A stretch of DNA of 40,049 bases, from contig JBBSDO010000002.1 in NCBI GenBank assembly GCA_038241515.1, forward strand, positions 1 to 40,049. Reading direction: 5' to 3'. This stretch comes from Elusimicrobiota bacterium. Its GTDB lineage: Bacteria > Elusimicrobiota > Elusimicrobia > 2-01-FULL-59-12. The notes below the pieces were generated by a model, which was not told the origin of the DNA, searched no databases, and saw only the letters and a program-made list of their open reading frames with translations. The translations under genes were made by a program, and so were the position numbers. Positions 4,824-40,049 of the stretch are shown here, piece after piece. Position 1 is the stretch's first letter; every line of letters starts with the position of its first letter.

Positions 4824-4850
4824 GGAGATGAATATTCTATAATACGCCCT

Positions 4851-5462: not shown

Positions 5463-5668
5463 CGATCATCCTCCGTTCGCTGATTCGAGTGTATCAATGG
5501 GTGAGCTTTGCGGTGCCGCACCGTTGTCGCTTTATCCCTTCTTGCTCAAAATACATCGACCAGTCCTTGGCGGCGCGTGGGTTTTTTAGGGGTTTGCCTT
5601 TAGGTCTGGGCCGGCTTCTCAGGTGCCACCCTTGGAATCCTGGCGGCTACGATCCCGTTAATAATTAG
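5417..5668 (+). CDS. yidD: membrane protein insertion efficiency factor YidD
   Basis: 83 aa containing LIRVYQWVSF..RCRFIPSCSKY....G...G..LGLGRLLRCHPWNPGGYDPV, the YidD consensus. It overlaps the 3' end of rnpA. Confidence 0.9.
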   Translation: MDKSASPFAALDASLAIILRSLIRVYQWVSFAVPHRCRFIPSCSKYIDQSLAARGFFRGLPLGLGRLLRCHPWNPGGYDPVNN

Positions 5669-5677
5669 GAGAAATTT

Positions 5678-13240: not shown

Positions 13241-13294
13241 TACACTCTAAGTCGTCCCCTTCACCTTCGTAACCCATAAAGGATCCACCTGCTT

Positions 13295-16351: not shown

Positions 16352-16370
16352 TGAACTACGGAAGGGCAAC

Positions 16371-16467
16371 AGGCAAAGGGCAAAAGGCAAAAGGCAAATC
16401 TCTCGAGGTATTTCTATTTAAAGAAACCCGCAAGAGTTTTGCTTTTTTCCTTTTGCCCTTTGCCTTT
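16371..16467 (+). terminator. long inverted repeat with tandem GGCAAA(A/G) arms; possible intrinsic terminator after ccsA
   Basis: AGGCAAAGGGCAAAAGG (16371-16387) is the perfect complement of CCTTTTGCCCTTTGCCT (16449-16465). The pairing extends with 2 mismatches to about 28 bp, the loop is 39 nt, and TTTGATTTT follows. Confidence 0.4.
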
Positions 16468-16478
16468 TGATTTTCCGT

Positions 16479-17570: not shown

Positions 17571-17575
17571 ACGTT

Positions 17576-19594: not shown

Positions 19595-19600
19595 AAGATC

Positions 19601-23645: not shown

Positions 23646-23650
23646 GGCCT

Positions 23651-25316: not shown

Positions 25317-25450
25317 TTCTCTTGCTCCACGGCTTGAGTGGCGGTGCGGCCCTCTGAATCGTGTACACCACCGAGTTATCCATTCGTTTGGATTACCCAT
25401 CGCACCCTCCCTCGTAAACATTCACATCTATTTACATAGCCGTTTAAGGC

Positions 25451-25479
25451 TTGACAGTCACAAATACCCCGGCTAGACT
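25451..25479 (+). promoter_or_regulatory. near-consensus sigma70-type promoter heading the giant-protein operon
   Basis: TTGACA (25451-25456), a 17-nt spacer, then TAGACT (25474-25479). It lies in a 365-bp non-coding gap, and all downstream genes are co-oriented. Confidence 0.5.
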
Positions 25480-25681
25480 TCCCAGGAGTTGAGAGTTTGT
25501 TGAGTTTCGTCACTGTTCACTTAGGTTCTTTGAAAATACGACGGCAATAGCGGATTATTCCCGTCGGTAGTACTGAACGATAAACGCAAAGTCAGCGCAA
25601 GCTGGCGACGGTCGCTGGTATTTACGGCGATTACCTTCCAGATTTTTGGAGGGTGCAAAGCTTCCGGTCCTCAAGGAGTTT

Positions 25682-26236
25682 ATGGGGGCAGCGGGGTTAC
25701 CGAATTCTATGAACCTAAAGAAGTACACATTTTCTATATTTGTCCTTTTCCCTTTGGCTGGCCTTTGGAAGGGGGGTCCATCGACACCGGTGGGCGGGCT
25801 GGCTAATAGGATTTCGATCCAAAACCACGTAGTACCTTCTCAGAACTTCCTGCCCGATTTAACACCCACCGTAGACGATTTAGATGCTCGGGACGCCCAG
25901 AATCGCTCCATTTCGGATGACGAAACCCGCTCATCCTTGCGGAAACTTTTCCTCGAAAATTTGTTCCGTCTGAGCGTCGTCGAACCGACCCATGCCTGGC
26001 GCGAAGCTGCTGAAGCGCTAGATGCTCTTTCGCGCCGATTTCACGACGCGTTTTCAGTGGTCTCTCGAGCGCTCCAACAACTCTTTCAAGCTCTTCTTCG
26101 CTCCCCTCTAAGACGCGTTGTGCACAATGTTAATAAGCTGTGGATAAGTATTTCCGTCGGAGTTTATCTCACTTTTTTCCTGTCAGCTAATATCCGCTTC
26201 CAAAACGTCCCGCAATCCCTCTCCTTGCGCTGTTAA
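25682..26236 (+). CDS. hypothetical envelope protein (N-terminal signal/anchor, helical core, C-terminal TM)
   Basis: AAGGAG at 25673-25678 precedes ATG 25682. The product has YTFSIFVLFPLAGLW near the N-terminus and LWISISVGVYLTFFL near the C-terminus. I recognised no family. The start could be TTG 25646 or ATG 25709. Confidence 0.5.
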   Translation: MGAAGLPNSMNLKKYTFSIFVLFPLAGLWKGGPSTPVGGLANRISIQNHVVPSQNFLPDLTPTVDDLDARDAQNRSISDDETRSSLRKLFLENLFRLSVVEPTHAWREAAEALDALSRRFHDAFSVVSRALQQLFQALLRSPLRRVVHNVNKLWISISVGVYLTFFLSANIRFQNVPQSLSLRC

Positions 26237-26320
26237 ACCCTACAGTCGCCCCGTATTTTTCTCGGGGACTTGCTGTCTGCTGTTCAATGGGTTTGGTATC
26301 CACCACAAAAAAGGGAGTTC

Positions 26321-27076
26321 ATGGAAAATCGATTCACCCACGGCCGGGATTTATTATTTTGCGCGCGCGCGTGCGCGCGTATATTAAGTAGCAGCGCTAT
26401 TCGCCTGCCCGTCGAATGGGTAGGCTATTTGCTGTTATCGCTTTCGATTCTCCTGCCGAACGTGACGTTGGCTCAAGACACCCGAACCCTCCGCGGCGCC
26501 GATTTGAAAATTCACGGTGTGGCGTTGAATCGGAGCCTCGAACAACCCACCCGCGAAAAAATGCATATCGCCGACCACTGCGGCTACGAGAAAGCAACGG
26601 CAAGCGCGATGCCCCTCGTAGGCTCGGACGGCGCAACTGTCATACCGCATTTCCAATCGAAACGTGGCGTGGTCCTGCTTGAAGGCTATATTCAAGGCGT
26701 CGAACCCAAAGTCTTGCATACCGCCTTGCTGAGCACCTACAAAAATCTACCCACAGCCATTCGTGGCGAAATAGCCATGCAACCCAGTCCGCGTTACAAC
26801 CTGGCCATTGCCCTCGCAGCCACCGTCGCCGGCGACGGAGACTTGGCTCTGGCCAAAGGCGACTTCCTAACTCTCCAAACCGATGGCCAAATTTATGTGT
26901 ATTCATTGCCCGAAATCACCGTTCCTAGCGAGGGGCTTGTAACACTTTTCGCGGGGACCGATGACTCCCTCTACTTCGACGCAGCACTAACGCACCTGGC
27001 ACATTCCGGATCTTGCCTGGATCGAAAACCTCACGACGGCCAATTCAATCCGGCGAAAGGATTCCTATCCAAGTGA
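26321..27076 (+). CDS. hypothetical secreted protein
   Basis: GGGAG lies 4 nt before ATG 26321. A signal-like segment VGYLLLSLSILLPNVTLA|QD is followed by a ~200-aa domain of no recognised family. The stop TGA (27074-27076) is 2 nt from the giant ORF's ATG. Confidence 0.55.
   Translation: MENRFTHGRDLLFCARACARILSSSAIRLPVEWVGYLLLSLSILLPNVTLAQDTRTLRGADLKIHGVALNRSLEQPTREKMHIADHCGYEKATASAMPLVGSDGATVIPHFQSKRGVVLLEGYIQGVEPKVLHTALLSTYKNLPTAIRGEIAMQPSPRYNLAIALAATVAGDGDLALAKGDFLTLQTDGQIYVYSLPEITVPSEGLVTLFAGTDDSLYFDAALTHLAHSGSCLDRKPHDGQFNPAKGFLSK
26361..26384. repeat. 24-nt perfectly alternating purine-pyrimidine tract, (GC)5-GT-(GC)3-GT-ATAT
   Basis: GCGCGCGCGCGTGCGCGCGTATAT, read directly from the sequence. 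It lies in the 5' part of the 26321-27076 CDS and encodes CARACARI. Confidence 0.8.
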
Positions 27077-27078
27077 GA

Positions 27079-29946
27079 ATGCGGACGCATCGGATTCTGC
27101 CTCTCGGCCGCCTCCTCTCTTCACTCCAACAGTCTTTGTTGCGAAATTTCGCCTTGCTCGTGGGGGGGTTTTTGGCAGGCATAATTTTTACTTCACCTCT
27201 TCACGCTCGAACCTTCATCTGGAACGCGTCCGCAACCGGAAACTGGAGCGTCGCCAGTAACTGGAACATAAACGACGGCACGCTTCCGGGGCCAAACGAT
27301 GACGTGAGATTTACCACAACCGGTGGGACGAATAGGTCCTGCAACTTTGACGTCTCACCCTCTACGACTGTCGCCTCAATCACCATTGGCGCAGGCTACA
27401 CCACAACCCTTGCCATTAACGCCAATTGTCAGCTGGAAAGTCTGGGAAGCTTCAGTATGACAAACGGAGCCGTGGTGAACGTGAAAACGTCTAACGCCAT
27501 TTTGAATATTGACGGCAATTACAGCCAGTCGCTCGGTACGATAAATTTGAGTGGTGGAAAGGAACTGGATATCGGGGGTGATTTCTCGTTTACGGGAGGC
27601 ATTTTTGTACCGGGAATCACCGCCACAGTGCTCTTTACAGGCGGCTATTTGGGCGCCACCTCCCAAAACATCACCGGTGCTGCTGCCAATTTTTATAACG
27701 CGACTTTCCAGAACTCCGCCGTGACCTGGGTCCTTCAGAGCAGCATTACGGTCAACCACAATCTTTACATTCAATTCGGCACCCTCGATGCCAACACAGG
27801 CGTCGCGGGCTGCAACAATTCGAGCTGTAACATCCTCGTTACGGGCAGTTGGCAGAACGACGATAATTTCACCGCTCGCGTGGGTACGGTCACTTTTAAT
27901 GGCACGGTCAACACGTTAGGAATCCATAATTCCGGTAATAACAATTTCGCTCACTTGGTGTTCAACGGCGTTGGTGGAAAATGGACCCTCTATGATCCCA
28001 TTGGGGTGAATGGCAACCTCAGCTTGACCAACGGGACTCTCGACACTTCTGCCACATCGGGTGGAAATTGCAATGGCACCAGCTGCTCTTTTACCGTAGG
28101 CAACGCGTGGACAAATACCGGTGGAACTTTTAACGCCAACGGCAGCACAGTCACCTTTAATGGCGCTATCGTCAATCAACCGATCACTTCAAACACCAAT
28201 AACTTCAATAACGTGACATTGAATGGATCAGGTTCATGGGTCCTACAGGACACGATGACGGTGACATCCACAATGACGATCACCCAAGGAACCCTCAATC
28301 CCAATAACAAAGACATGGGTGTCGGGGGTTCCTGGTTAAACTCCGGAGGCACGTTCTCGGCGAGCGCGAGCACAGTTACTTTTACGGCAACGAATCTACA
28401 AAAAATTCAACCCAACAACAGCGCGTTTCCTAACGTCATCTTAAATGGATCGGGCGGCACGTGGACGGTTCAAAATGCTCTAAGTGTGGCCACCATGACC
28501 ATCACGCTAGGTACATTGAATTTGGGAAACAATGATGTCACGGTATCTCAAAGTTGGTTGAACAACGGCGGCGCGTTCAGTTTCGGGGCCAGCACAATCA
28601 CCTTCACAGGTACAACCGCCCAGAAGATCAAGTCAATCGGGCGCAATTTTAATAATGTCATTCTTAACGGTGCGGGCTCTTGGGTCCTTCAAGACTCGAT
28701 GACCGTGACTTCCGGCCTCACAATCACCCAAGGGACATTGGATCCCTCCGCGTCAAGCTACGGTATTTCGATTGGGAATAACTGGCTCAATAGCGGGACC
28801 TTTACCGCACGCTCAAGTACTCAGACATTTACGGGCTCCGGTTCAGGATTCGGAATTAAATCCAATGGAAAGCCATTTAACGACATTATTTTCAGTGGAG
28901 CAGGCTATTGGACCCTTCAAGATTCTATGACGGTCTCCAGTGCCACCCTGAACTCGGGGAATACGCTCGAACTTGCTGGTTTTGGAGCCGCCGTATCCAG
29001 TCTCACAGTTGCTGGTACCCTGGTCGTTCGAGGAACGGAAACCATAACAAACAAACCCAACTTCCTTACCGGTTCGAATGCGACCTACAACGCTTCGGCT
29101 GGATCCCCCGTCGTATTATCGACCTGGGTCTACCAAAATCTCACTATTAACGGTGACGCGGCAACTATCTTTTCTGTGCTTGGCGGATCTTTGACAATAA
29201 ATGGGAACTTGACGCTCAGCGGAGGAAGCCTAGATGCCACATCCACGAACAATTACGGAATGGGGATCGGAGGAAATTGGACAAACAGCGGAGGGGTTTT
29301 CCTTGCGCAACAGAGCACCGTGACATTCACAGGCACTTCTGCGGGTCAAACGATTACCTCTCGCGGCAGTCCGTTCAATAACTCTACTTTCAACGGCACC
29401 GGAGGCACCTGGATACTCCAGGACTCGATGACTGTAACGTCGACGATGACTCTCACGGCCGGTACGCTCGATACTGGCTCCAACCAAGCGATCGGGCTAG
29501 GCGGCGGTTGGGCCAATAACGGTGGCACGTTCCTCGTTAGGGGAAGTACCCTCAGCTTAACGGGAAATGTTCCGCAACTCATCAACAATAAAGGCCAAGC
29601 GCTCGGTGTGCTGGTTGACTCTAATATCGTAAACGGGCTAGGGACCGTGTTTACTTCGAGCTTTTCAGCCACCCAACTCTATATCAACACAGCGTCTTTA
29701 GGACAAGGGACTACCGTACAGTTTCTCGCCACCTCGACTTCAAGCATTACGACACTGAACTTGATCGGATCCAGCACAAACCCGATCTATCTACGTTCGA
29801 GCGCCAATGGCTCTGCATGGCTCCTGAAAAACACCGGTACGGAAAGCGTTTCGTTTGTCGATGTGCGTGATTCGAGCGCTACGACGAACCTGATCTACGC
29901 TTCCAACTCCCGCGATTCAGGCAACAATACGGGCTGGGTGTTTGGG
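27079..29946 (+). repeat. module 1 of the giant protein (signal peptide, at least five ~74-aa sub-repeats, C-cap)
   Basis: W(V/T)LQD-type sub-repeat cores lie near 28240, 28465, 28685, 28910 and 29410. The module ends with ...LRSSANGSAWLLKNTGTESVSFVDVRDSSA...SRDSGNNTGWVFG. Confidence 0.7.
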
Positions 29947-32900
29947 CAATTCATTTGGCAAGGGAGCCAGGACACGAATTGGTCAAATAGCGCTAACTGG
30001 AATTCAAAAGCAGTTCCTTCAACCAATGATGCTGCGACGATTTCCGCGTCCGCGACCCGCTGGCCGACTCTCACCCAAGACGTGACTATCTCCACTTTGT
30101 CCATCACCGCCGGATCAACTGTCACTCTCAATGGGTTTAACCTAACGCTGTCGAGTTTCACCAATTTTGGAACCCTCGTGTTTGCCGGCACCGAAACAAT
30201 TACAACTGCACCTTTGAACGTGGCCGGTTCAACCGTGACCTATACCAGCTTAGGTGCTTCCTTAATACTATCCACTTGGACCTACCGCAACCTCATCATC
30301 AATGGGGCGGGAACCTTTGCGGTCGTGGGAACCTCTTTGACCATCAATGAGGATCTCTCGATTAACGCAGGAACCCTGAACAGCGCCAACAAAGATATTG
30401 GGATAGCCGGGAATTGGGCTAATAACGGAGGGTCCTTCATCAACATGTCCACCGTGACCTTTATGGGGACCGCATCCGGTAAGGGAATTACGTCACGCGG
30501 CAGCAATTTCAATAACCTCATCCTGAATGGTTCCCTAGGGTATTGGACCTTGCAAGATTCCATGACGGTGGTCTCCTCCATGACGATCTCAGCAGGAACT
30601 TTAGACGCGTCGACGGGGAATTGCTTGGCGGGAACGGCCAGCTGCAATATTTCAGTCGCGGGGACCTGGCTTAATAGCAACACGGGCGTCTTTATCGCCA
30701 ATACCAGCACCGTGACGTTCAACGGGACCCTTACGGGGCAGAAAATCACTTCTCGAGGGAATCCCTTTTACAACCTGTCCATTAGTGGAGGGGCGAACGG
30801 CTTCTGGACCCTTCAGGATTCCATGACCGTGACGAACAACGTCACCTTGGCCCTCGGTAAATTGGATGCCTCGACGGCCAATTGCGCCGGCGCCAGTTGC
30901 AATCTGTCCGTGGCCGGAAACTGGCTCAATAACGGCGGCACTTTTGCCACACAACTCAGTACCGTGACGTTTAACGGCACGACCTCCGGTCACACGATCA
31001 CTTCCCGCGGCAATAACTTCAACAACGTCACAGTCAACGGCGTGAGCGGTTATTGGACATTACAAGACTCCATGACCTTAACCTCCACCATGACGCTCAC
31101 CGCCGGCACGTTCGACACCGGCAGCAACCAGGCGATCCGGCTCACGGGCGGTTGGGCCACGACGGCGGGGACTTTCATTGCCAATGGGAGCACCCTGACT
31201 CTCGTTGGAACAAATCTCCAAGTCATCAACGCGAAAGGACAAACCTTCGGAGTCATCGTCGACTCCAACACGACCGCCGGTGTGGTTGTATTCAGTTCCA
31301 GTTTTACGGCCGGCCAGTTTTACCTCAACGGCTCGGGGCTGGGACAAGCGACAACGGTCTACTTCCAGGCGGGTTCGACTGCTACGATTACGAGTTTTAA
31401 TATCATCGGCTCGGCTTCCAACGGAGTTTATCTCCGTTCGACGACGAACGGAAATTCCTGGTCTCTGTCGAATACGAGCACAAATACCGTGACTTTTGCC
31501 AACGCCTCGGATTCGGACGCCCGTTTGGCTACTCAAATCAGGGCCGTTTCGTCTACGGATGGGGGAAATAATAAAAATTGGAACTTTGTCGGTCAGTCCG
31601 GAACAAAACAGTGGGTCGGGGGAGCCACCACCGGTTCGAATACGAATTGGTCAAACGGAGCAAACTGGGATCTAGGCGTTCCATCGACGTTAGATACGGT
31701 TCTGATTCTGTCTTCAGCAACCACGATGCCGCAATTGACATCCAATGTGTCGGTCGCCAACGTCACAATCGGAACCGCCCCCGCTTCTCTCAATTTAAAC
31801 GGCTACAACCTATCTAACACGTCCAACCTAAGCAATAAAGGTAACTTGCAATTACAGGGAGGCGAATCGATTACTCCGGTGCCTTCATTTGTAGCCGGCT
31901 CCTCCGTAACGTATACGGGAGATGGGACGTCCGGAAATTTCATCGTCTATTCCACGTGGACTTACAGCAATCTCGTCATCACGGGAACTTTCGGCAACTT
32001 CGCCGTGACCGGCGCTGGTGCTATGACAATTGGACAGAGCCTGGCTATCAATTCCGGAAATGTCACGCTCCCCAATAATAACGCGGTCAATGTTACCGGC
32101 AATGTGGCCATTCAAGGGGCTCTCTCCAATCTCACGTTAAGCGGGTCGACGATCACGGTCGGAGGCAACTGGACGATCGGCCAAGCCAGTGACTTTACGC
32201 CGGGAAATTCCGTTCTGGCCTTCTCTTCCTCAAACCCGGGTCGCTCGATACAGCCCGCTGGAAGTTCCTTCAATTCGGTTACATTTAGCCAATCTGGCGG
32301 CAATTGGAATCTAGCAGGAGACATGAATACAACGGGCGCCACGATCAATTCAGGAGCCGGACTTACCCTCGCCGGCTTCAATCTAACAGTCTCCAGTTTT
32401 ACGATAGGCGGAACCCTGACACTGGGCGGCACGGAAAACGTCAGCACTAAGCCTAATAATCTTGTCGGTTCCACGGTGACTTACAACGGCGGAGGGCAAA
32501 CGATCGTCCTTTCGACCTGGTCTTACCGCAACGTGATCATCAATGGAGCCGGCACATTCAAGGTCAATGGCGGTTCCCTCACTATTAATGAAAGTCTCAC
32601 CTTGGCCGCTGGCACGCTGGATCCCACGGTCAGCAACTATACGATCGGCGTGGCAAACAACTGGACGAATAGCGGAGGAAGTTTCCTCGCTCGTGCCAGT
32701 ACCATCACCTTCACGGGGTCCTCTGCGGCGGGGACGATCCAATCCGCAGGTGTGCCTTTTGCGAACGTCCAGATAAACAGCATAGGAGGCGCTGGCTATT
32801 GGACGCTTTTGGATTCCATGACCGTAACGTCCTCCATGACTCTGACGGCGGGGACGTTCGACACCTCGGGCTCGAACAACCTGGGAATCTCCCTAGGAGG

Positions 32901-35900
32901 AAATTGGGCCAATCTCGGAGGAACCTTCGTAACGAACTTAAGCACTCTAACCTTGAACGGCACCCTTGCTCAGAAGGTGAACAACAATGGCCAGGCCTTT
33001 GCGCTCTTGCTGGATTCCAACACCTCTTCCGGCGGCGTGACCTTTTCTTCAAGTTTCTCGGCGACCGGCCTCACCATTAATGGCTCCGCCACCGGACTGA
33101 ATAGTGCCACCACCGTTTACTTTAATGCCGGATCGACATTCACGATTACAAACTTGACGCTGACCGGGGCCGCCGCCAAAAAGGTCTGGATGCGATCCAC
33201 ATTAGGTGGAAAAAACTGGATGTTCAACAACACGGGCGCCAACACCGTTACATTTGTCGATGTGGCGGACTCCGATGCGCGGCCGGGCACCTTAATTACA
33301 GCTACGAATAACGACACAGACTCCGGCAATAACAAAAATTGGAACTTCGGCACGACAGGTCAATTAAAAACCTGGTGGGGAAAATCGGATTCGGATTGGA
33401 CCAAAGGCTACAACTGGGACAACGGTACTCCCTCTCTTCAAGATTCGGCATTGATCGTTTCTACGGCAACCATTATGCCGATCATGACCTCCAATGTGAC
33501 GATCTCGACGCTGACGATCAATTCCGGCTCGACGGTCACGCTCAGTGGATTCAATCTGACTTTAACGAGTTTTACGAACGCCGGCGCCTTCGCCTTTTAC
33601 GGAACAGAAATTGTGAGTACAAAGCCTTACAGCATGGCGGGTTCAACGATCGCCTACACCGGTACAGCGACTTCGCTCGTTCTTTCAAGTTGGACCTATC
33701 GGAATTTGGTCATTAGTGGGAATGCAGGACTCTTTAACGTCGCCGGCGGCTCTCTAACCATCAATGAAAGCATCAACCTCGTCGCCGGCACCCTGGATGC
33801 GACGGCCAGTAACTACACCTTGGGTGTCGGCGCCAATTGGGTCAACAGCGGGGGTTCTTTCACTGCCCAGCAAAGCACCGTTAGCTTTACTGGTGTGGGC
33901 ACAGCTTACACCATTCAGTCCAGAGGCAACCCTTTCGGCCACGTTCAATTCAACAGTCCGGGGGGCGTTGGTTACTGGACCTTGCAAGACTCGATGACGG
34001 TGACCTCCTCGATGACCTTCACCGCCGGTACCTTAGACACCGGATCCAATTGTGCGGGTCTTGGCTGCAACCTTTCCGTGGGAGGATCCTGGTTACTTAA
34101 AAATACCGGCGTTTTTGTCGCGAACCAGAGTACGGTCACTTTCATTGGATCGACGGTTGGTCAACGCATCACCTCGGGCGGCAACAGCTTTAATCACGTA
34201 GCCTTCAGCGGAGCGGGAGGCTACTGGACGCTCCAAGATGCGATGGTGATCGCCTCCACCTTAACCCTGGCAGCGGGAACGATGGATGGAGGCGTTCAGA
34301 GTATTACCTTGGGTGGAGGCTTGGACAATAAAGGAGGTACTTTCGTTGCGAATGGAAGCACCTTGACCTTAAATGGCAGCGTTCCACAGAAAATTAATAA
34401 CGCCTTTGGTCAGGCCTTCGGAGTCCTTCTCGATTCCAATACCACAGGCGGTGGGGTGACGTTTAATTCGAGTTTTACAGCGACAGGCCTGACGGTCAAC
34501 GGAGCCGCCCAGAGCAGCCCCATGATGGTTTACTTTCATGCCGGATCCAGCTACACGATCACGAATTTGACTCTTACGGGTTCCAGTGGTCAACCGGTCA
34601 CTTTGCGATCGAGCATTAACGGTACCGCCTGGAAGCTAAAAAATACAGGAGCGGAAAGCGCTTCCTTCGTGGATGTTCAAGATTCCAATGCCAGCTCTAG
34701 CGCCAATCCGATTTACGCCTCCAATTCCACAAACTCCGGAAATAACGTGAATTGGAACTTCGGCCAATTCACCTGGCTGGGAACGGTGGATACCAACTGG
34801 TCGAATGCCGCGAACTGGAATTCCATATCGGTTCCGGCAGCAAACGATGCCGCCTCCTTATCTCCTGGGGCCCCGCGGATGCCGGTTTTAACACAAGCCG
34901 TTGCGATCTCAACGCTGACGATACCGGCGGGTTCTACGGTCACCTTGAACGGCTTCAGTCTGACTCTCTCCAGCTTCACGAATGCCGGGAGTGTAGTCCT
35001 TGTTGGAACTGAAGCAGTCAGCTCCGTTCCTTTGAACCTTGCCGGCTCCTCCGTCACCTACACCAGCAATGGGACGTCGATTGTTTTATCCACTTGGAGC
35101 TATCGCAACTTGCTCATTAACGGCGCCGGCACTTTCAAAGCCAGCGGTGCCCTCACCGTGGCGGAGAACTTCAACATCAATGCGGGAACGTTCAACAGCA
35201 ACAGCAAAGACATAACCGTGGGGCAGGATTGGTTGACGAACAGTGGTTCGTTTATCAATATCTCAACCGTCACTTTTACCGCCGGGGGAGCACAACAAAT
35301 TTCGTCTCGCAACAGTAACTTCGGTAATGTGATCTTCAACGGAGCGGGGGGTTACTGGACCTTGGTGGATTCCATGACGATTGTCTCCACCATGACGATC
35401 ACGCAAGGCACGCTGGATACCTCCGCGGCCAGCTGCGGCGGCGTCAGTTGCAACATCAGCGTTGCGGGCACCTGGCTCGTTAACAACAGTGGCGTTTTCG
35501 TGGCGAATACGAGCACGGTCACGTTCAACGGCACGGTCACTGGCCAGAAGATCACTTCCCGCGGCAGCAGCTTCAATAATATGACCCTCAACGGGACGGG
35601 CGGCTCCTGGACGCTTCAAGATCCGCTGACCCTCACTTCGACCATGACGCTCATCGCTGGCACGCTCAAGACTGGAACCGCTCAGCCGATTACGCTATCC
35701 GGAGGTTGGGCTAATACGGGAGGACTCTTCACGGCCTCCGGCCACACCCTTTATCTGACCGGCGCCAATCCCCAATACATCAACAACAGAGGGCAAGGCT
35801 TCGGCGTCCTGATCGATTCCAACACCACGACCGGCGGACTGATTTTCACCTCGAGCTTTTCCGCGACACAGCTCTTTGTGAACGGAGCCGGCCTCGGTAG

Positions 35901-38900
35901 CGCCACTTCGCTCTTCTTCAACTGGGGATCGACTTTTACGATCTCCAACTTTGCCGTGTCCGGGGCGAACGGCCAACTGGTCACGCTGCGTTCCAGCTCG
36001 AATGGCAAAGCGTGGTGGCTTAAGAATACCGGGGCGCAAAGCGTCTCTTTCGTCGATGTCCAAGACTCGAACGCCAGCTTGGGAAATATTATTTACACTT
36101 CCAATTCGACCGACTCCGGAAATAACGTGAATTGGAAGATCGGGCTCTTCACATGGAACGGAAATACGGACACCACCTGGTCGACCGCCACAAACTGGGA
36201 TTCGAATATTGTCCCGAGCGCGGGGGATGCCGCAACGATCCCCAGCTCCGCTTTGGTGATGCCGACCCTTACACAGGCGGTAACCATTTCTACCTTAACG
36301 ATCAATGCGGGGGCCCAGTTGACCTTAGGCGGTTATGGATTGTCGCTTTCCAGCTTCACGAATGCCGGCAATTTTGTCTTCGTGGGTACGGAAGCGGTTA
36401 CGACCGCGCCAAACAACTTACCCGGATCAAGCGTCACCTACACGAGCAACGGCAATTCGATTGTCTTGTCCACTTGGACCTTCCGCAATCTCCTTATCAA
36501 CGGCAACGGGACGTTCAAAGCCACCGGCGCATTGACGGTAAATGAAAACTTGGTTCTCGCGGCGGGGACGCTCGACATGACCGTTACTAATTATGGCCTT
36601 ACCTTAGGCAACAGCTGGACGAACACCGGCGGTTCCTTCCTGGCCCGCCAAGGTCTTCTGACATTCAATGGAACGACCGCAGGGAACTCGATCACCTCTC
36701 GCGGGATCCCTTTTAACCTGGTCACGTGGAACGGATCAGGCGGCTATTGGACCCTGCAGGATACCATGACCGTTATTTCCACCATGACGATTTCGGCGGG
36801 AACGCTCGATACCTCGGTCGCCAATTGCAGTGGTGGAAGTTGCAACATCGCTTTGGGCGGAACTTGGCTGAACAATGGCGCAGGCATTTTTGTGGCCAAT
36901 GGCAGCACCGTCACATTTACCGGTACGGCGGTCGGGCAAAAAATCACGTCGCGCGGCATTCCCTTTTATAGCTTAACCCTCAACGGCGGCGGGAGTGGAT
37001 TCTGGACGCTCCAAGACTCCATGACCGTCGTGGGTAACTTGACGCTGACCGGCGGAAAACTGGATATGTCCGGCGCCAATTGCGCTGGAACAAGCTGCAA
37101 TTTGTCGGTCGCGGGGACGTGGCTCAATAACGGAGGCACATTCCTCTCCCAGCTCAGCACCGTGACTTTAAACGGAACAGCGGCTGGGCAGTCCATCACG
37201 TCCCGCGGGAATGGCTTTAATAACCTCACGTTGAATGGCATCGGTGGGTATTGGACCCTAATCGATTCCATGACTGTCACCTCGACGATGACCATTACTC
37301 AAGGAACGCTTGATGCTTCGGCTTCGAACTGCACCGGCGTGAGCTGCAATATCACGGTCGGAGGGACCTGGTTGACGGGTCCGAGCGGGGTTTTTGTGGT
37401 CAACACCAATACGGTCTTGTTGACTAGCACTTTGGCCAACCAAAAAATAACCTCAGGCGCTAACTCCTTCAATAACGTCACGTTGAATGGAGGCGGAGGG
37501 GTCTGGACCCTTCAGGACCCGCTTACCTTGGTGTCGACGATGACACTGACTGCCGGCACCCTGAACACCGGTTCCAACCAATCGATCACGCTCGGTGGAG
37601 GGTGGGCCAATACCGGCGGTCTCTTCACCGCCAACAGCTCGAACTTCTCCCTCAATGGAAACGCCACGCAGGTGATTAACAATAAAGGCCAGGCCTTCAG
37701 CACATTGGTCGATTCAAACACAACGGCAGGAGGCGTCCTATTTACTTCCAGCTTCTCCGCCACCCTCTTCTCCGTCAATGGGGCGGCACTCGGTTTACCG
37801 ATGGCCGTGCAATTTTTGACGGGGTCCACAGTGACCATTACAAATCTCTCACTGACCGGCGCTAGCAACCAGAACATCACGCTGCGTTCAAGCCTCAATA
37901 CCAAGTCGTGGTGGCTGAAAAACACGGGAACTCAGACTGTCTCTTTTGTGGATGTTCAAGATTCCAATGCCAGCCTTAGCTCAAATCCCATCTATGCCAG
38001 CAATTCGAAGGATTCGGGCAACAACCTGAACTGGAAAATCGGTCAATTCACTTGGCTCGGTACGGTTGACACCAACTGGTCGAACGCCGCCAACTGGGAT
38101 TCCTTAGCCGTTCCAGGCGCCATGGATGGTCCCGCCATTTCCGCAGCCGCAGTACGGATGCCGATCCTCACACAGGCCGTGACGGTTTCAACCTTAACGA
38201 TCACCGCAGGCTCTACAGTGACCTTGAACGGCTTTAGTCTGAATCTTTCCAGTTTCACAAATGCTGGCAGTCTAGTCCTAGTCGGTACGGAAACTGTCAC
38301 GACGGCTCCGAATAACCTCGCGGGATCCAGTGTCACCTACGTCAGCACCGGCAATTCCATCGTCTTATCGACCTGGACGTACCGCAACCTCCTTATTAAT
38401 GGCTCAGGCTCCATGAAAGCCACCGGAGCTTTGACCGTCAGCGAAGGCCTCGCCATCTACGCCGGCTCCTTCAACGCCAATAGCAAAGATATCTCCGTCG
38501 GTTCGAGCTGGATCACAAACGCCGGCGCCTTCATCAATATCTCGACCGTCACCTTTACGGCCACAACCCCTCAAACCCTGCGCTCCAACAACAGCAACTT
38601 CAACAACATCGTCTTTAACGGATCCGGCGGATCGTGGGTCTTGCAAGACTCCATGACCGTTACCTCCACCATGACGATCACTCAAGGCACCCTCGATACT
38701 TCCGCCGCCAACTGCTCCGGCGCTAGCTGCAATATCGCCGTCGCCGGTTCTTGGCTCAATAGCGCCACCTTCACCGCTAACACCAGCACCGTCACTTTCA
38801 CGGGTGCCCTGGCCGGCCAGAAGATTACTTCCGGCGGCAGCAGCTTCAATAACTTGACTATCACCGGCGCCGGAACCTGGACTTTGCAAGACCCCTTGGT

Positions 38901-40049
38901 CTTGACCGCTACGGCCACCTTGACGGCAGGATCCCTTAAAACCGGATCGAATCAACCCATCACACTCGCTGGCGGCTGGGCTAATACCGGCGGCATCTTT
39001 ACGGCGGGCGCCACGACCCTGACGGTCAATGGCGCAGTTCCTCAGCTCATCAATAACAACGGCCAAGCCTTTGGCGTCATCGTCGATTCCAATACCAACA
39101 CCGGCAAAGGACTCGTATTCACATCCAGCTTCTCGGCCACACAGCTCTATGTCAACGCCGCTGGCCTTGCTCAGGCCACCACCATCCAGTTCTTGGCGGG
39201 ATCGACTGACACCATCACCACCCTCACTTTGGCCGGAATGGACGCTTCAAACCCCATCTACCTGCGATCCAGCGCCGCTGGCTCCTCCTGGTTCCTGAAA
39301 AATACCGGATCCGAAACAGTCTCTTTCGCAGACGTCAAAGATTCCAGTGCCACCGCCAACATCATCTACGCCGTCAATTCCACGAATTCCGGCAATAACC
39401 AAAACTGGAACTTCGGCCAGTTCACCTGGAACGGCAATACCGATACCAATTGGTCCAACGTCGCGAACTGGAATTCGAATGCCCTCCCAGGCACGAGCGA
39501 CGTCGCCACCATCCCGGCTTCGGCCACGCGCTGGCCTACTTTGACCCAGCCCGTCACGATCTCGGCTTTAACCATCACCGCCGGCTCCACTGTCACCTTG
39601 AACGGCTTTAACCTCACGCTCAATACCTTGAACAACTCCGGCGCTCTCGTGCTCGTTGGCACAGAAACCGTTTCGAGCGTCCCAACCAACTTGGCAGGTT
39701 CCACCGTCACTTACAACAGCACCGGCACTTCCATTGTCTTGTCCACCTGGACTTACAGAAACCTCTTCATCAACGGCTCCGGCACCTTCAAAGCCACTGG
39801 CCCTCTGACCATCAATGAAAACCTTATGGTGGGGGCCGGGACCTTCGACACGAATAATAAAGATATCACCGCCGCCCAAAGCTGGATCACGACCGGCGGC
39901 TCTTTCATCAACGTCTCGACTGTCACCTTTACCGCCACGACCCCTCAACAGATCACGTCCCGCGGATCCAACTTCGGCAATCTCATCTTGAACGGTTCCG
40001 GCGGATCGTGGGTCCTCCAAGATTCCATGACCGTCACCTCCTCCATGAC
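27079..40049 (+). CDS. giant secreted repeat protein (predicted beta-helix / adhesin-like), 5' portion only; at least 4323 codons with no stop before the window end
   Basis: The frame (coordinate mod 3 = 1) is open from ATG 27079 (GTG 27073 is also in frame) to base 40049. The ORF track lists no frame-1 plus-strand ORF after 27076, as expected if no stop occurs. Spot translations at 27079, 28201, 29920, 31561, 33301, 34741, 36121, 38017, 39361 and 39961 all stay in this frame and give the same motif family (STVTF.G, FNN..LNG.GG.W.LQDSMTV, GTLD). The N-terminus MRTHRILPLGRLLSSLQQSLLRNFALLVGGFLAGIIFTSPLHA|RTF looks like a signal peptide. Confidence 0.9.
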   Translation, partial: MRTHRILPLGRLLSSLQQSLLRNFALLVGGFLAGIIFTSPLHARTFIWNASATGNWSVASNWNINDGTLPGPNDDVRFTTTGGTNRSCNFDVSPSTTVASITIGAGYTTTLAINANCQLESLGSFSMTNGAVVNVKTSNAILNIDGNYSQSLGTINLSGGKELDIGGDFSFTGGIFVPGITATVLFTGGYLGATSQNITGAAANFYNATFQNSAVTWVLQSSITVNHNLYIQFGTLDANTGVAGCNNSSCNILVTGSWQNDDNFTARVGTVTFNGTVNTLGIHNSGNNNFAHLVFNGVGGKWTLYDPIGVNGNLSLTNGTLDTSATSGGNCNGTSCSFTVGNAWTNTGGTFNANGSTVTFNGAIVNQPITSNTNNFNNVTLNGSGSWVLQDTMTVTSTMTITQGTLNPNNKDMGVGGSWLNSGGTFSASASTVTFTATNLQKIQPNNSAFPNVILNGSGGTWTVQNALSVATMTITLGTLNLGNNDVTVSQSWLNNGGAFSFGASTITFTGTTAQKIKSIGRNFNNVILNGAGSWVLQDSMTVTSGLTITQGTLDPSASSYGISIGNNWLNSGTFTARSSTQTFTGSGSGFGIKSNGKPFNDIIFSGAGYWTLQDSMTVSSATLNSGNTLELAGFGAAVSSLTVAGTLVVRGTETITNKPNFLTGSNATYNASAGSPVVLSTWVYQNLTINGDAATIFSVLGGSLTINGNLTLSGGSLDATSTNNYGMGIGGNWTNSGGVFLAQQSTVTFTGTSAGQTITSRGSPFNNSTFNGTGGTWILQDSMTVTSTMTLTAGTLDTGSNQAIGLGGGWANNGGTFLVRGSTLSLTGNVPQLINNKGQALGVLVDSNIVNGLGTVFTSSFSATQLYINTASLGQGTTVQFLATSTSSITTLNLIGSSTNPIYLRSSANGSAWLLKNTGTESVSFVDVRDSSATTNLIYASNSRDSGNNTGWVFGQFIWQGSQDTNWSNSANWNSKAVPSTNDAATISASATRWPTLTQDVTISTLSITAGSTVTLNGFNLTLSSFTNFGTLVFAGTETITTAPLNVAGSTVTYTSLGASLILSTWTYRNLIINGAGTFAVVGTSLTINEDLSINAGTLNSANKDIGIAGNWANNGGSFINMSTVTFMGTASGKGITSRGSNFNNLILNGSLGYWTLQDSMTVVSSMTISAGTLDASTGNCLAGTASCNISVAGTWLNSNTGVFIANTSTVTFNGTLTGQKITSRGNPFYNLSISGGANGFWTLQDSMTVTNNVTLALGKLDASTANCAGASCNLSVAGNWLNNGGTFATQLSTVTFNGTTSGHTITSRGNNFNNVTVNGVSGYWTLQDSMTLTSTMTLTAGTFDTGSNQAIRLTGGWATTAGTFIANGSTLTLVGTNLQVINAKGQTFGVIVDSNTTAGVVVFSSSFTAGQFYLNGSGLGQATTVYFQAGSTATITSFNIIGSASNGVYLRSTTNGNSWSLSNTSTNTVTFANASDSDARLATQIRAVSSTDGGNNKNWNFVGQSGTKQWVGGATTGSNTNWSNGANWDLGVPSTLDTVLILSSATTMPQLTSNVSVANVTIGTAPASLNLNGYNLSNTSNLSNKGNLQLQGGESITPVPSFVAGSSVTYTGDGTSGNFIVYSTWTYSNLVITGTFGNFAVTGAGAMTIGQSLAINSGNVTLPNNNAVNVTGNVAIQGALSNLTLSGSTITVGGNWTIGQASDFTPGNSVLAFSSSNPGRSIQPAGSSFNSVTFSQSGGNWNLAGDMNTTGATINSGAGLTLAGFNLTVSSFTIGGTLTLGGTENVSTKPNNLVGSTVTYNGGGQTIVLSTWSYRNVIINGAGTFKVNGGSLTINESLTLAAGTLDPTVSNYTIGVANNWTNSGGSFLARASTITFTGSSAAGTIQSAGVPFANVQINSIGGAGYWTLLDSMTVTSSMTLTAGTFDTSGSNNLGISLGGNWANLGGTFVTNLSTLTLNGTLAQKVNNNGQAFALLLDSNTSSGGVTFSSSFSATGLTINGSATGLNSATTVYFNAGSTFTITNLTLTGAAAKKVWMRSTLGGKNWMFNNTGANTVTFVDVADSDARPGTLITATNNDTDSGNNKNWNFGTTGQLKTWWGKSDSDWTKGYNWDNGTPSLQDSALIVSTATIMPIMTSNVTISTLTINSGSTVTLSGFNLTLTSFTNAGAFAFYGTEIVSTKPYSMAGSTIAYTGTATSLVLSSWTYRNLVISGNAGLFNVAGGSLTINESINLVAGTLDATASNYTLGVGANWVNSGGSFTAQQSTVSFTGVGTAYTIQSRGNPFGHVQFNSPGGVGYWTLQDSMTVTSSMTFTAGTLDTGSNCAGLGCNLSVGGSWLLKNTGVFVANQSTVTFIGSTVGQRITSGGNSFNHVAFSGAGGYWTLQDAMVIASTLTLAAGTMDGGVQSITLGGGLDNKGGTFVANGSTLTLNGSVPQKINNAFGQAFGVLLDSNTTGGGVTFNSSFTATGLTVNGAAQSSPMMVYFHAGSSYTITNLTLTGSSGQPVTLRSSINGTAWKLKNTGAESASFVDVQDSNASSSANPIYASNSTNSGNNVNWNFGQFTWLGTVDTNWSNAANWNSISVPAANDAASLSPGAPRMPVLTQAVAISTLTIPAGSTVTLNGFSLTLSSFTNAGSVVLVGTEAVSSVPLNLAGSSVTYTSNGTSIVLSTWSYRNLLINGAGTFKASGALTVAENFNINAGTFNSNSKDITVGQDWLTNSGSFINISTVTFTAGGAQQISSRNSNFGNVIFNGAGGYWTLVDSMTIVSTMTITQGTLDTSAASCGGVSCNISVAGTWLVNNSGVFVANTSTVTFNGTVTGQKITSRGSSFNNMTLNGTGGSWTLQDPLTLTSTMTLIAGTLKTGTAQPITLSGGWANTGGLFTASGHTLYLTGANPQYINNRGQGFGVLIDSNTTTGGLIFTSSFSATQLFVNGAGLGSATSLFFNWGSTFTISNFAVSGANGQLVTLRSSSNGKAWWLKNTGAQSVSFVDVQDSNASLGNIIYTSNSTDSGNNVNWKIGLFTWNGNTDTTWSTATNWDSNIVPSAGDAATIPSSALVMPTLTQAVTISTLTINAGAQLTLGGYGLSLSSFTNAGNFVFVGTEAVTTAPNNLPGSSVTYTSNGNSIVLSTWTFRNLLINGNGTFKATGALTVNENLVLAAGTLDMTVTNYGLTLGNSWTNTGGSFLARQGLLTFNGTTAGNSITSRGIPFNLVTWNGSGGYWTLQDTMTVISTMTISAGTLDTSVANCSGGSCNIALGGTWLNNGAGIFVANGSTVTFTGTAVGQKITSRGIPFYSLTLNGGGSGFWTLQDSMTVVGNLTLTGGKLDMSGANCAGTSCNLSVAGTWLNNGGTFLSQLSTVTLNGTAAGQSITSRGNGFNNLTLNGIGGYWTLIDSMTVTSTMTITQGTLDASASNCTGVSCNITVGGTWLTGPSGVFVVNTNTVLLTSTLANQKITSGANSFNNVTLNGGGGVWTLQDPLTLVSTMTLTAGTLNTGSNQSITLGGGWANTGGLFTANSSNFSLNGNATQVINNKGQAFSTLVDSNTTAGGVLFTSSFSATLFSVNGAALGLPMAVQFLTGSTVTITNLSLTGASNQNITLRSSLNTKSWWLKNTGTQTVSFVDVQDSNASLSSNPIYASNSKDSGNNLNWKIGQFTWLGTVDTNWSNAANWDSLAVPGAMDGPAISAAAVRMPILTQAVTVSTLTITAGSTVTLNGFSLNLSSFTNAGSLVLVGTETVTTAPNNLAGSSVTYVSTGNSIVLSTWTYRNLLINGSGSMKATGALTVSEGLAIYAGSFNANSKDISVGSSWITNAGAFINISTVTFTATTPQTLRSNNSNFNNIVFNGSGGSWVLQDSMTVTSTMTITQGTLDTSAANCSGASCNIAVAGSWLNSATFTANTSTVTFTGALAGQKITSGGSSFNNLTITGAGTWTLQDPLVLTATATLTAGSLKTGSNQPITLAGGWANTGGIFTAGATTLTVNGAVPQLINNNGQAFGVIVDSNTNTGKGLVFTSSFSATQLYVNAAGLAQATTIQFLAGSTDTITTLTLAGMDASNPIYLRSSAAGSSWFLKNTGSETVSFADVKDSSATANIIYAVNSTNSGNNQNWNFGQFTWNGNTDTNWSNVANWNSNALPGTSDVATIPASATRWPTLTQPVTISALTITAGSTVTLNGFNLTLNTLNNSGALVLVGTETVSSVPTNLAGSTVTYNSTGTSIVLSTWTYRNLFINGSGTFKATGPLTINENLMVGAGTFDTNNKDITAAQSWITTGGSFINVSTVTFTATTPQQITSRGSNFGNLILNGSGGSWVLQDSMTVTSSM
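28201..28422 (+). repeat. representative sub-repeat unit (74 aa)
   Basis: NFNNVTLNGSGSWVLQDTMTVTSTMTITQGTLNPNNKDMGVGGSWLNSGGTFSASASTVTFTATNLQKIQPNNS. The next unit starts at 28423 (AFPNVILNG...). Confidence 0.75.
29947..31593 (+). repeat. module 2 (549 aa; N-cap, 3 sub-repeats, C-cap)
   Basis: It starts QFIWQGSQDTNWSNSANWNSKAVPSTNDAATI and ends ...GGNNKNWNFVG. WTLQD cores lie near 30545, 30805 and 31055. Confidence 0.7.
31594..33351 (+). repeat. module 3 (586 aa; divergent, with two GFNL-type segments)
   Basis: It starts QSGTKQWVGGATTGSNTNWSNGANWDLGVPSTLD and ends ...DSGNNKNWNFG. GYNL/GFNL segments lie near 31800 and 32370. Confidence 0.65.
33352..34764 (+). repeat. module 4 (471 aa; 2 sub-repeats)
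   Basis: It starts TTGQLKTWWGKSDSDWTKGYNWDNGTPSLQD and ends ...NSGNNVNWNFG. WTLQD cores lie near 33975 and 34225. Confidence 0.7.
34765..36144 (+). repeat. module 5 (460 aa; 2 sub-repeats)
   Basis: It starts QFTWLGTVDTNWSNAANWNSISVPAAND and ends ...DSGNNVNWKIG. Cores lie near 35355 and 35610. Confidence 0.7.
36145..38043 (+). repeat. module 6 (633 aa; 4 sub-repeats)
   Basis: It starts LFTWNGNTDTTWSTATNWDSNIVPSAGD and ends ...DSGNNLNWKIG. Cores lie near 36750, 37000, 37255 and 37505. Confidence 0.7.
38044..39417 (+). repeat. module 7 (458 aa; 2 sub-repeats)
   Basis: It starts QFTWLGTVDTNWSNAANWDSLAVPGAMD and ends ...NSGNNQNWNFG. Cores lie near 38640 and 38880. Confidence 0.7.
39418..40049 (+). 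repeat. module 8 (truncated by the window end)
   Basis: It starts QFTWNGNTDTNWSNVANWNSNALPGTSD and has the same layout as modules 2, 5 and 7 up to the first WVLQDSMTV core at about 40010. Confidence 0.7.

Follow-up and report, generated by a model that had tools for sequence, protein, structure and literature searches.

The window (by which we mean the whole analysed stretch of 40,049 nucleotides, from an Elusimicrobiota contig) carries, up to its end, the first 13 kb of a gene for a Sec-exported fibrous surface protein of an uncultured Elusimicrobiota bacterium. The protein is of a known type, the giant repetitive beta-helical surface proteins, with its own variant of the repeat design. We give a probability of about 0.65 to reading it as an extracellular fibre or adhesin built of modules, in which capped beta-solenoid modules follow one another with docked caps as a segmented rod.

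Frame 1 is open from 26965 through the window end, and the giant ORF runs in it from 27079 to the contig end, that is over at least 4,323 codons (a 12,969-nt frame without interruption). The likely start is the ATG at 27079; the same start was called on an independent Logan contig (L001), which is 100% identical to positions 23915-29123 of the window (5.2 kb). For one of the window's proteins a database entry records a contig of 40049 nt, so the window covers the contig entirely. The gene, its leader and its upstream neighbours are placed as follows:

22821 to 27076, forward strand: an ABC ATPase gene, two ABC2_membrane_6 permease genes and two small ORFs without family match
27079 to 40049, forward strand: 5' part of the giant gene, an open frame truncated by the contig end
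27079 to 27207, forward strand: Sec-type signal peptide of 43 aa, MRTHRIL...FALLVGGFLAGIIFTSPLHA / RTFIW

We infer that the signal peptide is cleaved before RTFIW; equivalent N-termini, likewise followed by the N-terminal cap described below, are found in the orthologues P0138 and P0139. The strongly hydrophobic stretches of the protein are the signal peptide and one near residue 632, which lies within the beta-helix, and a hydrophobicity scan found no transmembrane segment beyond the signal peptide in the 4,323 residues read. Since a signal peptide is present and no transmembrane segment follows it, we concluded that the protein is exported by the Sec route. A prepilin-type N-terminus was also considered and was rejected, as the sequence holds no G-F-T-L-I-E motif. 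Thr, Gly, Ser and Asn are very abundant in the protein, and charged residues make up 5.8% of it. There are 22 Cys in total, with 11 closely spaced pairs (mostly Cx4C), and N-glycosylation sequons are not enriched (133 observed against about 129 expected).

The last small upstream ORF stops 3 nt ahead of the ATG of the giant gene, and the genes at 22821-27076 possibly form one operon with it. Four other loci (L002, L081, L084 and L087) show the ABC-2 genes and the first small ORF in synteny. Neighbouring enzymes are of the GT-C/GT2 type in the window and of the Wzy_C type at the paralogue locus. When metagenomes were scanned with the upstream permease, most of the contigs found were short; a member of the same protein family lies downstream of the permease in L081, L085 and L091 only, and in L084, L087 and L082 a different giant protein follows the permease locus. 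Genes for TpsB, for an autotransporter barrel or for T1SS were not found within the window.

Past the signal peptide, the protein is a head-to-tail series of modules. Each module opens with an N-cap, (Q/L)FTWxG..DTNWSNAANW (in a variant form in modules 3 and 4), and the C-cap, which ends in ...DSGNNxNWxFG, directly abuts the next N-cap. A previous reading of the sequence without database searches (hereafter the sequence-only reading) had placed seven junctions, at 29947, 31594, 33352, 34765, 36145, 38044 and 39418, and every one of these is the first codon after ...NW(N/K)(F/I)G. The modules and one junction are listed below:

27079 to 29946, forward strand: module 1, 956 aa, compound (N-cap, 6 units, a cap-less N-region at 28942-29259, 1 unit, C-region, C-cap)
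29947 to 31593, forward strand: module 2, 549 aa, 3 units
31594 to 33351, forward strand: module 3, 586 aa, compound
33352 to 34764, forward strand: module 4, 471 aa, 2 units
34765 to 36144, forward strand: module 5, 460 aa, 2 units, the module whose structure was modelled
36145 to 38043, forward strand: module 6, 633 aa, 4 units
38044 to 39417, forward strand: module 7, 458 aa, 2 units
39418 to 40049, forward strand: module 8, at least 210 aa, partial (N-cap, N-region and first unit, truncated by the contig end)
35965 to 36370, forward strand: example of a cap-to-cap junction, C-cap VTLRSS...DSGNNVNWKIG / N-cap LFTWNGNTDTTWSTATNW...LTQAVTISTLTI

The most divergent pair, modules 5 and 3, still aligns end to end by BLASTP with E = 4e-73. 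This means that the module repeat is not due to chance. The two flavours of first unit are also as had been described, one shared by modules 2, 5, 7 and 8 and the other by modules 3, 4 and 6; in module 3 this unit sits after the second N-region.

Counting the units by their W(T/V)LQD motif gives three in the module of 549 aa, two in those of 471, 460 and 458 aa and four in that of 633 aa, in agreement with the sequence-only reading, which had also proposed that module length equals a scaffold of about 290 aa plus about 85 aa for each unit. A least-squares fit over modules 2 and 4 to 7 (the compound modules 1 and 3 lying outside it) reproduces this rule closely: the slope is 85.1 aa and the intercept 292.9 aa, and no residual exceeds 8 aa. 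The picture of two repeat levels, caps and quantised lengths holds, the length rule for modules 2 and 4 to 7. It had omitted module 3, which at 586 aa is off the rule: its order is N-cap, N-region, a degenerate unit, a second and cap-less N-region (32338-32655), one unit, C-region and C-cap. The proposal that each module is a complete small protein is favoured by the existence of stand-alone homologues and by the position of the first N-cap right after the signal peptide, with the correction that modules 1 and 3 are compound.

There are 23 units in the part of the protein read in the window, and the sub-repeat has a DNA period of 249-255 nt. One interior unit may serve as an example:

35299 to 35550, forward strand: unit of 84 aa with a CxxxxC pair, ISSRNSNFGNVIFNGAGGYWTLVDSMTIV...SCGGVSCNISVAGTWL...TSTVTFNGTVTGQK

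Cys is absent from the last unit of every module. Beyond the two levels of the sequence-only reading we found a third one, a rung of about 21 aa. The autocorrelation of hydrophobicity peaks at lag 21 (0.09) and at lag 7 (0.08), where the maximum of 200 shuffles is 0.067, and the autocorrelation of residue identity peaks at lag 84. A rung probably has three sides of about 7 aa each, and four rungs would make one unit of 84-85 aa. The units lie between the N-cap with its N-region (about 150 aa) and the C-region with its C-cap (about 145 aa). At least eight such modules, of about 293 + 85n aa, follow each other in the chain, and from one C-cap to the next N-cap there are 0-6 residues. The whole plan can be written as the grammar SP-[W (n u^k)^m C]^N, in which the N-cap is W, the N-region n, the unit u, and the C-region together with the C-cap C; modules 1 and 3 use cap-less joints (m = 2).

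We then have to ask whether these copies are old. Near-identical DNA between modules, which the sequence-only reading had named as the sign of a recent expansion or of an artefact, is not seen: nucleotide identity between modules is 50-70%, and the best of the long DNA repeats is 300 nt at 71%. Between modules, synonymous sites are saturated (pS 0.58-0.82) and dN/dS is 0.09-0.25. At the junctions, where the sequence-only reading had noticed mainly synonymous differences, pS is 0.64-0.92 against a pN of 0.13-0.29. An orthologue from a different sample, P0138, is collinear over about 3,000 aa at 50% identity and has the same module order (modules of 1041, 531, 592, 458 and at least 419 aa); even the odd compound layout of module 3 is kept in it. 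Judged from these substitution patterns, the module copies are old and under purifying selection. The claim of old duplications held by selection on the protein must however be corrected on one point. Modules 5 and 7 are 75% identical, whereas module 5 and its positional orthologue P5 are 60% identical; since some modules resemble another module more than they resemble their positional orthologue, the duplications are not all equally old, and the sequences leave room for some past homogenisation or later duplication among modules, which is possible.

One could also suspect, from the contig stopping within module 8, from the independent assembly L001 breaking at 29123 and from homologue contigs often breaking within such genes, that the repeats come from collapsed or chimeric reads, or that they are young copies from a very recent expansion. 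This is contradicted by the divergence just described, with its saturated synonymous sites and a best repeat of 300 nt at 71%, by the unbroken frame of 12,969 nt, by the identity of L001 across 5.2 kb and by the collinearity of P0138, which comes from another sample. We consider this explanation extremely improbable and, for practical purposes, refuted.

The module belongs to a very large family which has no curated model in Pfam, NCBIfam, PHROG or the PDB: modules searched against the first three gave nothing above threshold, and a profile search of PDB sequences with the module gave 0 matches at E <=1. An exhaustive profile search, in contrast to a word-indexed protein search which gave 17 relatives, reached 8,117 protein clusters at E <=1e-3 (1,089 at E <=1e-30), so that, with clustering at 50% identity, the family counts 8,000 clusters or more; the low-complexity composition probably saturated the candidate list of the word-indexed search. 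Family members are mostly 2-8 thousand aa long and come from Omnitrophota, CPR, Planctomycetota and other phyla, and the best matches (2-7.7 thousand aa) have up to 30 matched stretches each. In a scan of genome contigs, the best relatives are at 36-40% identity. Tandem modules with C-cap and N-cap occur in loci of Omnitrophota (in L004, a member with 12 C-caps), Wallbacteria, Elusimicrobiota, Planctomycetota and Peribacteria.

We described the family by a C-cap motif (...LRS..G..W.L.N....V.F.DV.DS.A...DSGNNxNWxF), directly followed by an N-cap W.G....W....NW, and by a unit of about 75-85 aa in variable number between the caps; the window itself holds seven such C-cap/N-cap junctions, and each of its simple modules has 2-4 units. 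In the 147 top-ranking family representatives, a C-cap is followed by an adjacent N-cap 109 times, the median gap being 6 aa; the median length of modules with 0, 1, 2 and 3 units is 354, 403, 497 and 577 aa. Unit number, for which the sequence-only reading had proposed a comparison among homologues, does vary, from 0 to 13 per module, and length rises with the count.

Other members show the module in other settings. P0258 and P0005 are complete secreted proteins of one module, and the complete relatives P0139, P0002 and P0005 end in a domain of about 150 aa without Pfam or NCBIfam match. Two distant homologues from Planctomycetia (L012 and L026) have an N-terminal TPS domain (PF05860, E = 5e-33 and 3e-25), and RHS, DUF11, Big_6 or CarboxypepD_reg domains are found in others. 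Relatives are also encoded by 22 viral contigs. Many of the relatives on phage contigs are of about 450 aa, with units and then a C-cap 10-30 residues from the stop codon; most are without the Trp-rich N-cap, and these proteins of about 450 aa belong to no PHROG family. In the phage locus L110, which has portal and major head genes, the module gene lies between the two. It is a tentative thought, which we hold to be rather doubtful, that the module is at once a general block of the giant surface proteins of candidate phyla, a single-module virion protein of phages and a segmented-rod spacer with a quantum of about 2 nm.

The AlphaFold2 model of module 5 (pLDDT 86.9, pTM 0.83) is confidently all-beta, with runs of strands of 3-4 residues according to DSSP. 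This pattern and the periodicity of 21 and 7 residues are compatible with a solenoid whose rungs of about 20 aa have three short strands each. Foldseek found no significant match in the PDB for this model or for one centred on a junction (best E = 0.35-0.5, TM <=0.34), and the weak matches are all beta-helix proteins: Ag43, HMW1, HpmA, IgA1 protease, VacA and tailspikes. The matches in BFVD include phage proteins at E = 5e-6 (TMq 0.46) and 3e-5, and one of them is named 'Parallel beta-helix repeat'. PbH1-type profiles (Beta_helix PF13229, NosD PF05048) did not match in an hmmscan of modules 1, 2, 3, 5 and 6 at E <=1. From the DSSP pattern, the periodicity of the sequence and the nature of the weak matches, we concluded that the predicted fold is probably a beta-helix.

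The junction-centred model (pLDDT 84, pTM 0.74) reaches pLDDT 88-94 at the junction itself, where the strands WKI and LFTW are parted by the Gly alone. The C-cap has a pLDDT of about 58-71 when module 5 is modelled alone and of 85-94 once the next N-cap is present. The cap-to-cap junction is thus predicted by these models to be ordered rather than a linker. This bears on the explanation that the gene encodes a polyprotein, cut at each FG/QFTW junction into at least eight separate capped beta-helix proteins of 460-630 aa. The junction is indeed the most conserved string of the giant protein, the caps follow each other without linker (0-6 aa), and single-module homologues are encoded as separate genes. 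Yet a site that is predicted to be ordered, with its flanking strands separated by one Gly, argues against cutting, as do the variation of the residue following the conserved Gly (Q, L or T) and the failure to find a protease domain in the giant protein or in its neighbours. Moreover the cap-less joints of modules 1 and 3 are kept in P0138 and P0139, which means that modules can join without any FG/QFTW site. Self-cleavage of the SEA or GPS type needs a conserved Ser, Thr or Cys; it was rejected, the post-Gly residue not being conserved. On balance we hold cleavage into separate proteins to be quite improbable, and return to the continuous fibre.

In the fibre reading, each module would fold by itself as a capped beta-solenoid, the caps shielding the open ends of the helix, and neighbouring caps would dock on each other, which would turn the chain into a segmented rod. 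About 206 rungs at 0.48 nm per rung would give about 100 nm for the part read, and unequal recombination could add or remove units in frame, each step changing the length of the rod by about 2 nm. By analogy with TpsA/FHA exoproteins, autotransporter passengers and phage tailspikes, its function would most likely be that of an extracellular adhesive or structural fibre (an adhesin or the stalk of a surface coat).

An enzymatic role is less likely. Each module would then be a beta-helix with catalytic activity, acting as a polysaccharide lyase, hydrolase or depolymerase; the fold class is also that of pectate lyases and tailspike depolymerases, which are among the weak Foldseek matches, and in one homologue fragment, P0013, the N-cap and N-region stand next to Beta_helix, NosD and G8 domains. 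But no enzyme family of Pfam, NCBIfam or PHROG matches even at E <=1, no structural match to any enzyme is significant, the share of charged residues is only 5.8%, and the invariant columns are nearly all G, W, F, N, S, T or P, with one Asp (in the DSN motif) and one Arg (in LRS) only. An array of enzymes is hence an unlikely explanation, and we keep the adhesive or structural fibre.

Uncultured bacteria, many of which depend on a host, commonly have giant repetitive surface proteins, most of them still 'dark'. The locus shows no new mechanism; it is a clear example of a construction plan made of rung, unit, capped module and chain. Its elements (N-cap, N-region, unit and C-cap) are ready to be turned into HMMs, which would annotate thousands of unnamed proteins. 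Length also varies in nature, modules having between 0 and over 10 units and proteins between 1 and 12 or more modules. With such variants one can study how the capping of beta-solenoids, the autonomy of folding and the length of the fibre bear on function. If the docking of caps is true, it would make of these proteins a tunable molecular ruler or spacer for contacts between cells or between cell and particle, in quanta of about 85 aa.

Finally, the protein can be compared with known systems. Exoproteins of the TpsA/FHA type are, like it, very long, Sec-exported beta-helical fibres with rungs of about 20 aa, and the secretion domains of HMW1, HpmA, EtpA and FHA are among the weak structural matches of the module models. 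It differs from them in having no TPS domain (PF05860; none in module 1 at E <=1), in having no TpsB (Omp85-type) gene among the upstream genes in the window, and in being a chain of capped modules where TpsA is one continuous helix. Autotransporter passengers (Ag43, Hap, IgA1 protease, EspP) are the top, non-significant Foldseek matches in the PDB (TM <=0.34), and their right-handed beta-helix stalks can be likened to the giant protein; a functional analogy lies in their stable C-terminal cap or 'autochaperone' element. PATR or autotransporter Pfam families have no match in the part of the protein that is present, the C-terminus lying beyond the contig end.

The N-cap, as W-x-G-x(4-8)-W-x(4)-NW, weakly matches Amnionless (E = 6.5e-4 to 0.014, residues 8-70), and G8 gives faint or weak matches in homologues; none of them reaches the Pfam gathering score, and they extend over about 50 residues only. 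Beta-helix proteins resembling phage tailspikes or fibres give the BFVD matches (up to E = 5e-6, TMq 0.46), and phage relatives have a single module each against at least eight in the giant protein. Lastly, the giant proteins of the Archaeovorin type from Omnitrophota, for which a role in adhesion was proposed (10.1101/2023.11.21.568195), resemble it in having giant genes in uncultured or symbiotic bacteria and repeats that have diverged in their DNA. Archaeovorins contain numerous transmembrane regions, divergent SecA-DEAD helicase domains, domains of enzymes and an antiparallel beta-helix of a novel kind (10.1101/2023.11.21.568195), whereas the first 4,323 aa of our protein show none of these features; genomes of Omnitrophota also carry members of the capped-module family, as in L004.

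The observation made from sequence alone is real: the giant protein is built of capped modules fused head to tail. The seven junctions proposed (29947, 31594, 33352, 34765, 36145, 38044 and 39418) are all exact, each being the first codon after ...DSGNNxNW(N/K)(F/I)G. The sequence following a junction opens with (Q/L)FTWxG..DTNWSNAANW, or with the variants QSGTKQWVGG... in module M3 and TTGQLKTWWGK... in M4.

Modules of the giant protein (units counted by their W(T/V)LQD core)
M1: 956 aa, 7 units, compound
M2: 549 aa, 3 units
M3: 586 aa, 2 units, compound
M4: 471 aa, 2 units
M5: 460 aa, 2 units
M6: 633 aa, 4 units
M7: 458 aa, 2 units
M8: at least 210 aa, at least 1 unit, cut

The lengths of M2 and M4-M7 fit 292.9 + 85.1n aa with residuals of at most 8 aa, and units recur in the DNA every 249-255 nt. 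Hence the claim that module length is quantised by unit number holds for these modules, but it is broken by the 586-aa M3, which had not been listed. Two second N-regions devoid of the Trp-rich cap occur in the compound modules:
28942-29259, + strand: in M1
32338-32655, + strand: in M3, beside its two units
At these cap-less joints a half-unit (...W.L..M.V.S) passes directly into AT(L/I)NSG..L.LAGF, apparently the trace of an old unequal exchange in which homologous rungs recombined and a cap pair was lost. The same joints are carried by P0138, a collinear orthologue, and by the homologous protein P0139; this means that they are conserved and not accidental. The two flavours of first unit, one described for M2, M5, M7 and M8 and the other for M3, M4 and M6, were recovered, and even the most divergent pair, M5 and M3, aligns end to end (E = 4e-73).

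Two Cys lie close together in every interior unit (mostly Cx4C, e.g. NC.G.SCN), and the 11 such pairs make up all 22 Cys of the protein; the last unit of every module is without a pair (TGSNQ.I). Since the units of P0138 modules 2, 4 and 5 have no Cys, the Cys loop is dispensable. For hydrophobicity, the autocorrelation has peaks at lags 21 and 7 that exceed all 200 shuffles; for residue identity the peak is at lag 84. These periodicities indicate a third level of repeat, rungs of about 21 aa, four per unit. The architecture is SP-[W (n u^k)^m C]^N, with SP the signal peptide, W the N-cap, n the N-region, u the unit and C the C-region with C-cap.

Near-identical DNA, which would have pointed to a recent expansion, is not found between modules: they share 50-70% of nucleotides and 42-69% of amino acids, and no DNA repeat extends beyond 300 nt (at 71% identity). 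Synonymous differences are saturated (pS 0.58-0.82) while dN is 0.24-0.62, giving dN/dS of 0.09-0.25 where computable; for the cap pairs the values are 0.64-0.92 (pS) and 0.13-0.29 (pN). P0138, a partial protein of 3,041 aa from another sample, can be aligned collinearly to residues 13-2968 of the window protein (50% identity), and its modules (1041, 531, 592, 458 and at least 419 aa) keep the order and the compound M3. This shows that the first four or five modules are older than that deep split. The nearest relatives of M3 and M4 are their positional orthologues. M5 and M7 are 75% identical in their N-regions, against 60% to the orthologue, and M1 and M7 are 68% identical in their C-regions, against 54%, so that later duplication or past homogenisation probably also occurred, none of it recent. 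The interpretation of old duplications kept by selection on the protein is thus largely right, and has to be amended for this part of the modules and for the compound M1 and M3. That the array is an assembly artefact is extremely improbable: it is excluded by the diverged DNA of the modules, by the agreement of an independent assembly (Logan contig L001) and by the collinear orthologue.

From 26965 onwards, frame 1 of the + strand has no stop codon up to the end of the window, which is the entire contig, and the gene is truncated by the contig end at 40049. Its start is likely ATG 27079, 3 nt past the stop of the preceding ORF; the gene call on L001, which is 100% identical to window 23915-29123, has this start too. 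The product is 4,323 aa or longer. It carries an N-terminal Sec-type signal peptide (MRTHRIL...FALLVGGFLAGIIFTSPLHA), and no transmembrane-like segment follows it in the 4,323 aa present in the window. It is rich in Thr (15%), Gly (12.5%), Ser (12%) and Asn (11%), with only 5.8% charged residues. The surroundings are ordinary chromosome, and the MnmG is 74-79% identical to proteins labelled Elusimicrobia/Elusimicrobiota MAGs:
887-8613: replication-origin-type genes rnpA, yidC, mnmE, mnmG
12218-18493: response regulator with HD-GYP-type HD_5 domain, then cytochrome-c and haem biogenesis cluster (ResB, sirohaem synthase N-terminal domain, CcsA, HemA, HemC)
18554-22524: glycan genes (epimerase, 730-aa PMT_2/LIC_10190-like GT-C membrane protein, GT2 glycosyltransferase)
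22821-27076: ABC-2 transporter (one ATPase, two ABC2_membrane_6 permeases) and small membrane ORF (AGLPNSM...), followed by the giant gene
The order transporter, small ORF, giant signal-peptide protein is conserved across related Elusimicrobiota contigs (L081, L084, L087, L082); at this place L084, L087 and L082 encode a giant protein of another family (2,777 and 2,823 aa or more), invisible to our capped-module HMMs. The paralogue-type gene P0139/P0006 is adjoined by the gene of a Wzy_C (O-antigen-ligase-like) plus TPR protein (P0139 locus; L092), glycan genes lying close to both family members.

An AF2 model of M5, computed from an alignment of modules and homologues, is all-beta (pLDDT 86.9, pTM 0.83), with three short strands per about 20 residues in the N-region. 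The PDB holds no sequence relative of the module, and a structural search of it gave no significant match, the weak ones all being beta-helix or solenoid proteins; in BFVD, significant matches were uncharacterised phage proteins, one named "Parallel beta-helix repeat". In a model centred on a junction (35455-36744; pLDDT 84, pTM 0.74), the pLDDT of the C-cap rises from about 58-71 with M5 alone to 85-94, and the strands WKI and LFTW are parted by the junction Gly alone. Hence the predicted junction looks like an ordered interface rather than a linker, and the modules would be stacked coaxially. A polyprotein cut at the junctions is very unlikely, as the junction is ordered in the model, the residue following the Gly varies and cap-less joints exist.

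The capped module has no model in Pfam, NCBIfam or PHROG. In an exhaustive profile search, 8,117 clusters matched at E <= 1e-3, of which 1,089 reached E <= 1e-30; the best hits have a median length of 3,214 aa, and as many as 30 stretches are matched in one of them. Relatives are encoded by 253 stretches of species-representative genomes (Omnitrophota, CPR groups, Planctomycetota, Elusimicrobiota, Verrucomicrobiota, Wallbacteria and others). With our own HMMs for N-cap, unit and C-cap, tandem capped modules were also detected in the homologous loci:
L004: 12 C-caps
L014: eight modules of about 344 aa each, no units
L022: modules of about 547 aa
The top 147 family representatives contain 109 C-cap to N-cap pairs whose median spacing is 6 aa, and their module length increases with unit count. 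Module number varies among close relatives, from one (P0005, P0258) to at least eight (the window protein), and unit number falls to zero in L014; P0139, complete at 2,221 aa, has two long modules followed by a domain of about 150 aa at the C-terminus. The single-module relatives support the idea that each module is a complete small protein, and so do phage proteins of about 450 aa. Relatives are encoded on 22 viral contigs, many products being of this size and ending 10-30 residues past the C-cap; they consist of units, C-region and C-cap at the extreme C-terminus (L110, L107, L109, L094, L097, L101, L102) and have no PHROG family. The presence of portal and major head genes marks L110 as a genuine phage locus. 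In some Planctomycetia homologues the N-terminus is a TPS secretion domain; other homologues carry RHS, DUF11, Big_6 or CarboxypepD_reg domains. Coordinates of the phage gene and of three planctomycete loci are:
L110 3819-5225: phage family gene, between portal and major-head genes
L012 7619-12706: TPS-fused module, Planctomycetia/Planctomycetota
L026 7205-13213: the same, additionally with beta-propeller domains
L070 7613-18436: the module with RHS repeats
Both independent assemblies stop within the repeat gene (L001 at window 29123, the window at 40049) and database homologues are mostly fragments on contigs of 1-5 kb; the family is therefore under-represented in short-read catalogues.

An array of enzymes is unlikely, conserved catalytic residues and any family match being absent. 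The best reading of the giant protein is a secreted, segmented beta-solenoid fibre, presumably an adhesin or a structural stalk, whose length would be tuned by in-frame gain or loss of units. The Thr/Ser-rich fibre is possibly O-glycosylated; N-glycosylation sequons are not enriched in it.

Giant repetitive proteins, often beta-helical, are already known from uncultured bacteria, and "dissolved" DNA repeats with persisting protein architecture have been described (10.1101/2023.11.21.568195; 10.64898/2026.06.07.730766). By analogy, the giant protein may work like the beta-helices of TpsA proteins, autotransporters and tailspikes. Tested for membership, it differs from TpsA in having no TPS domain, and it falls outside the Pfam Beta_helix family and, over the 4,323 aa present, outside the Archaeovorins. 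What is new is the explicit grammar of capped modules and the repeats nested in them, the evidence for the module as an autonomous unit that phages share, and the size of the uncurated family.
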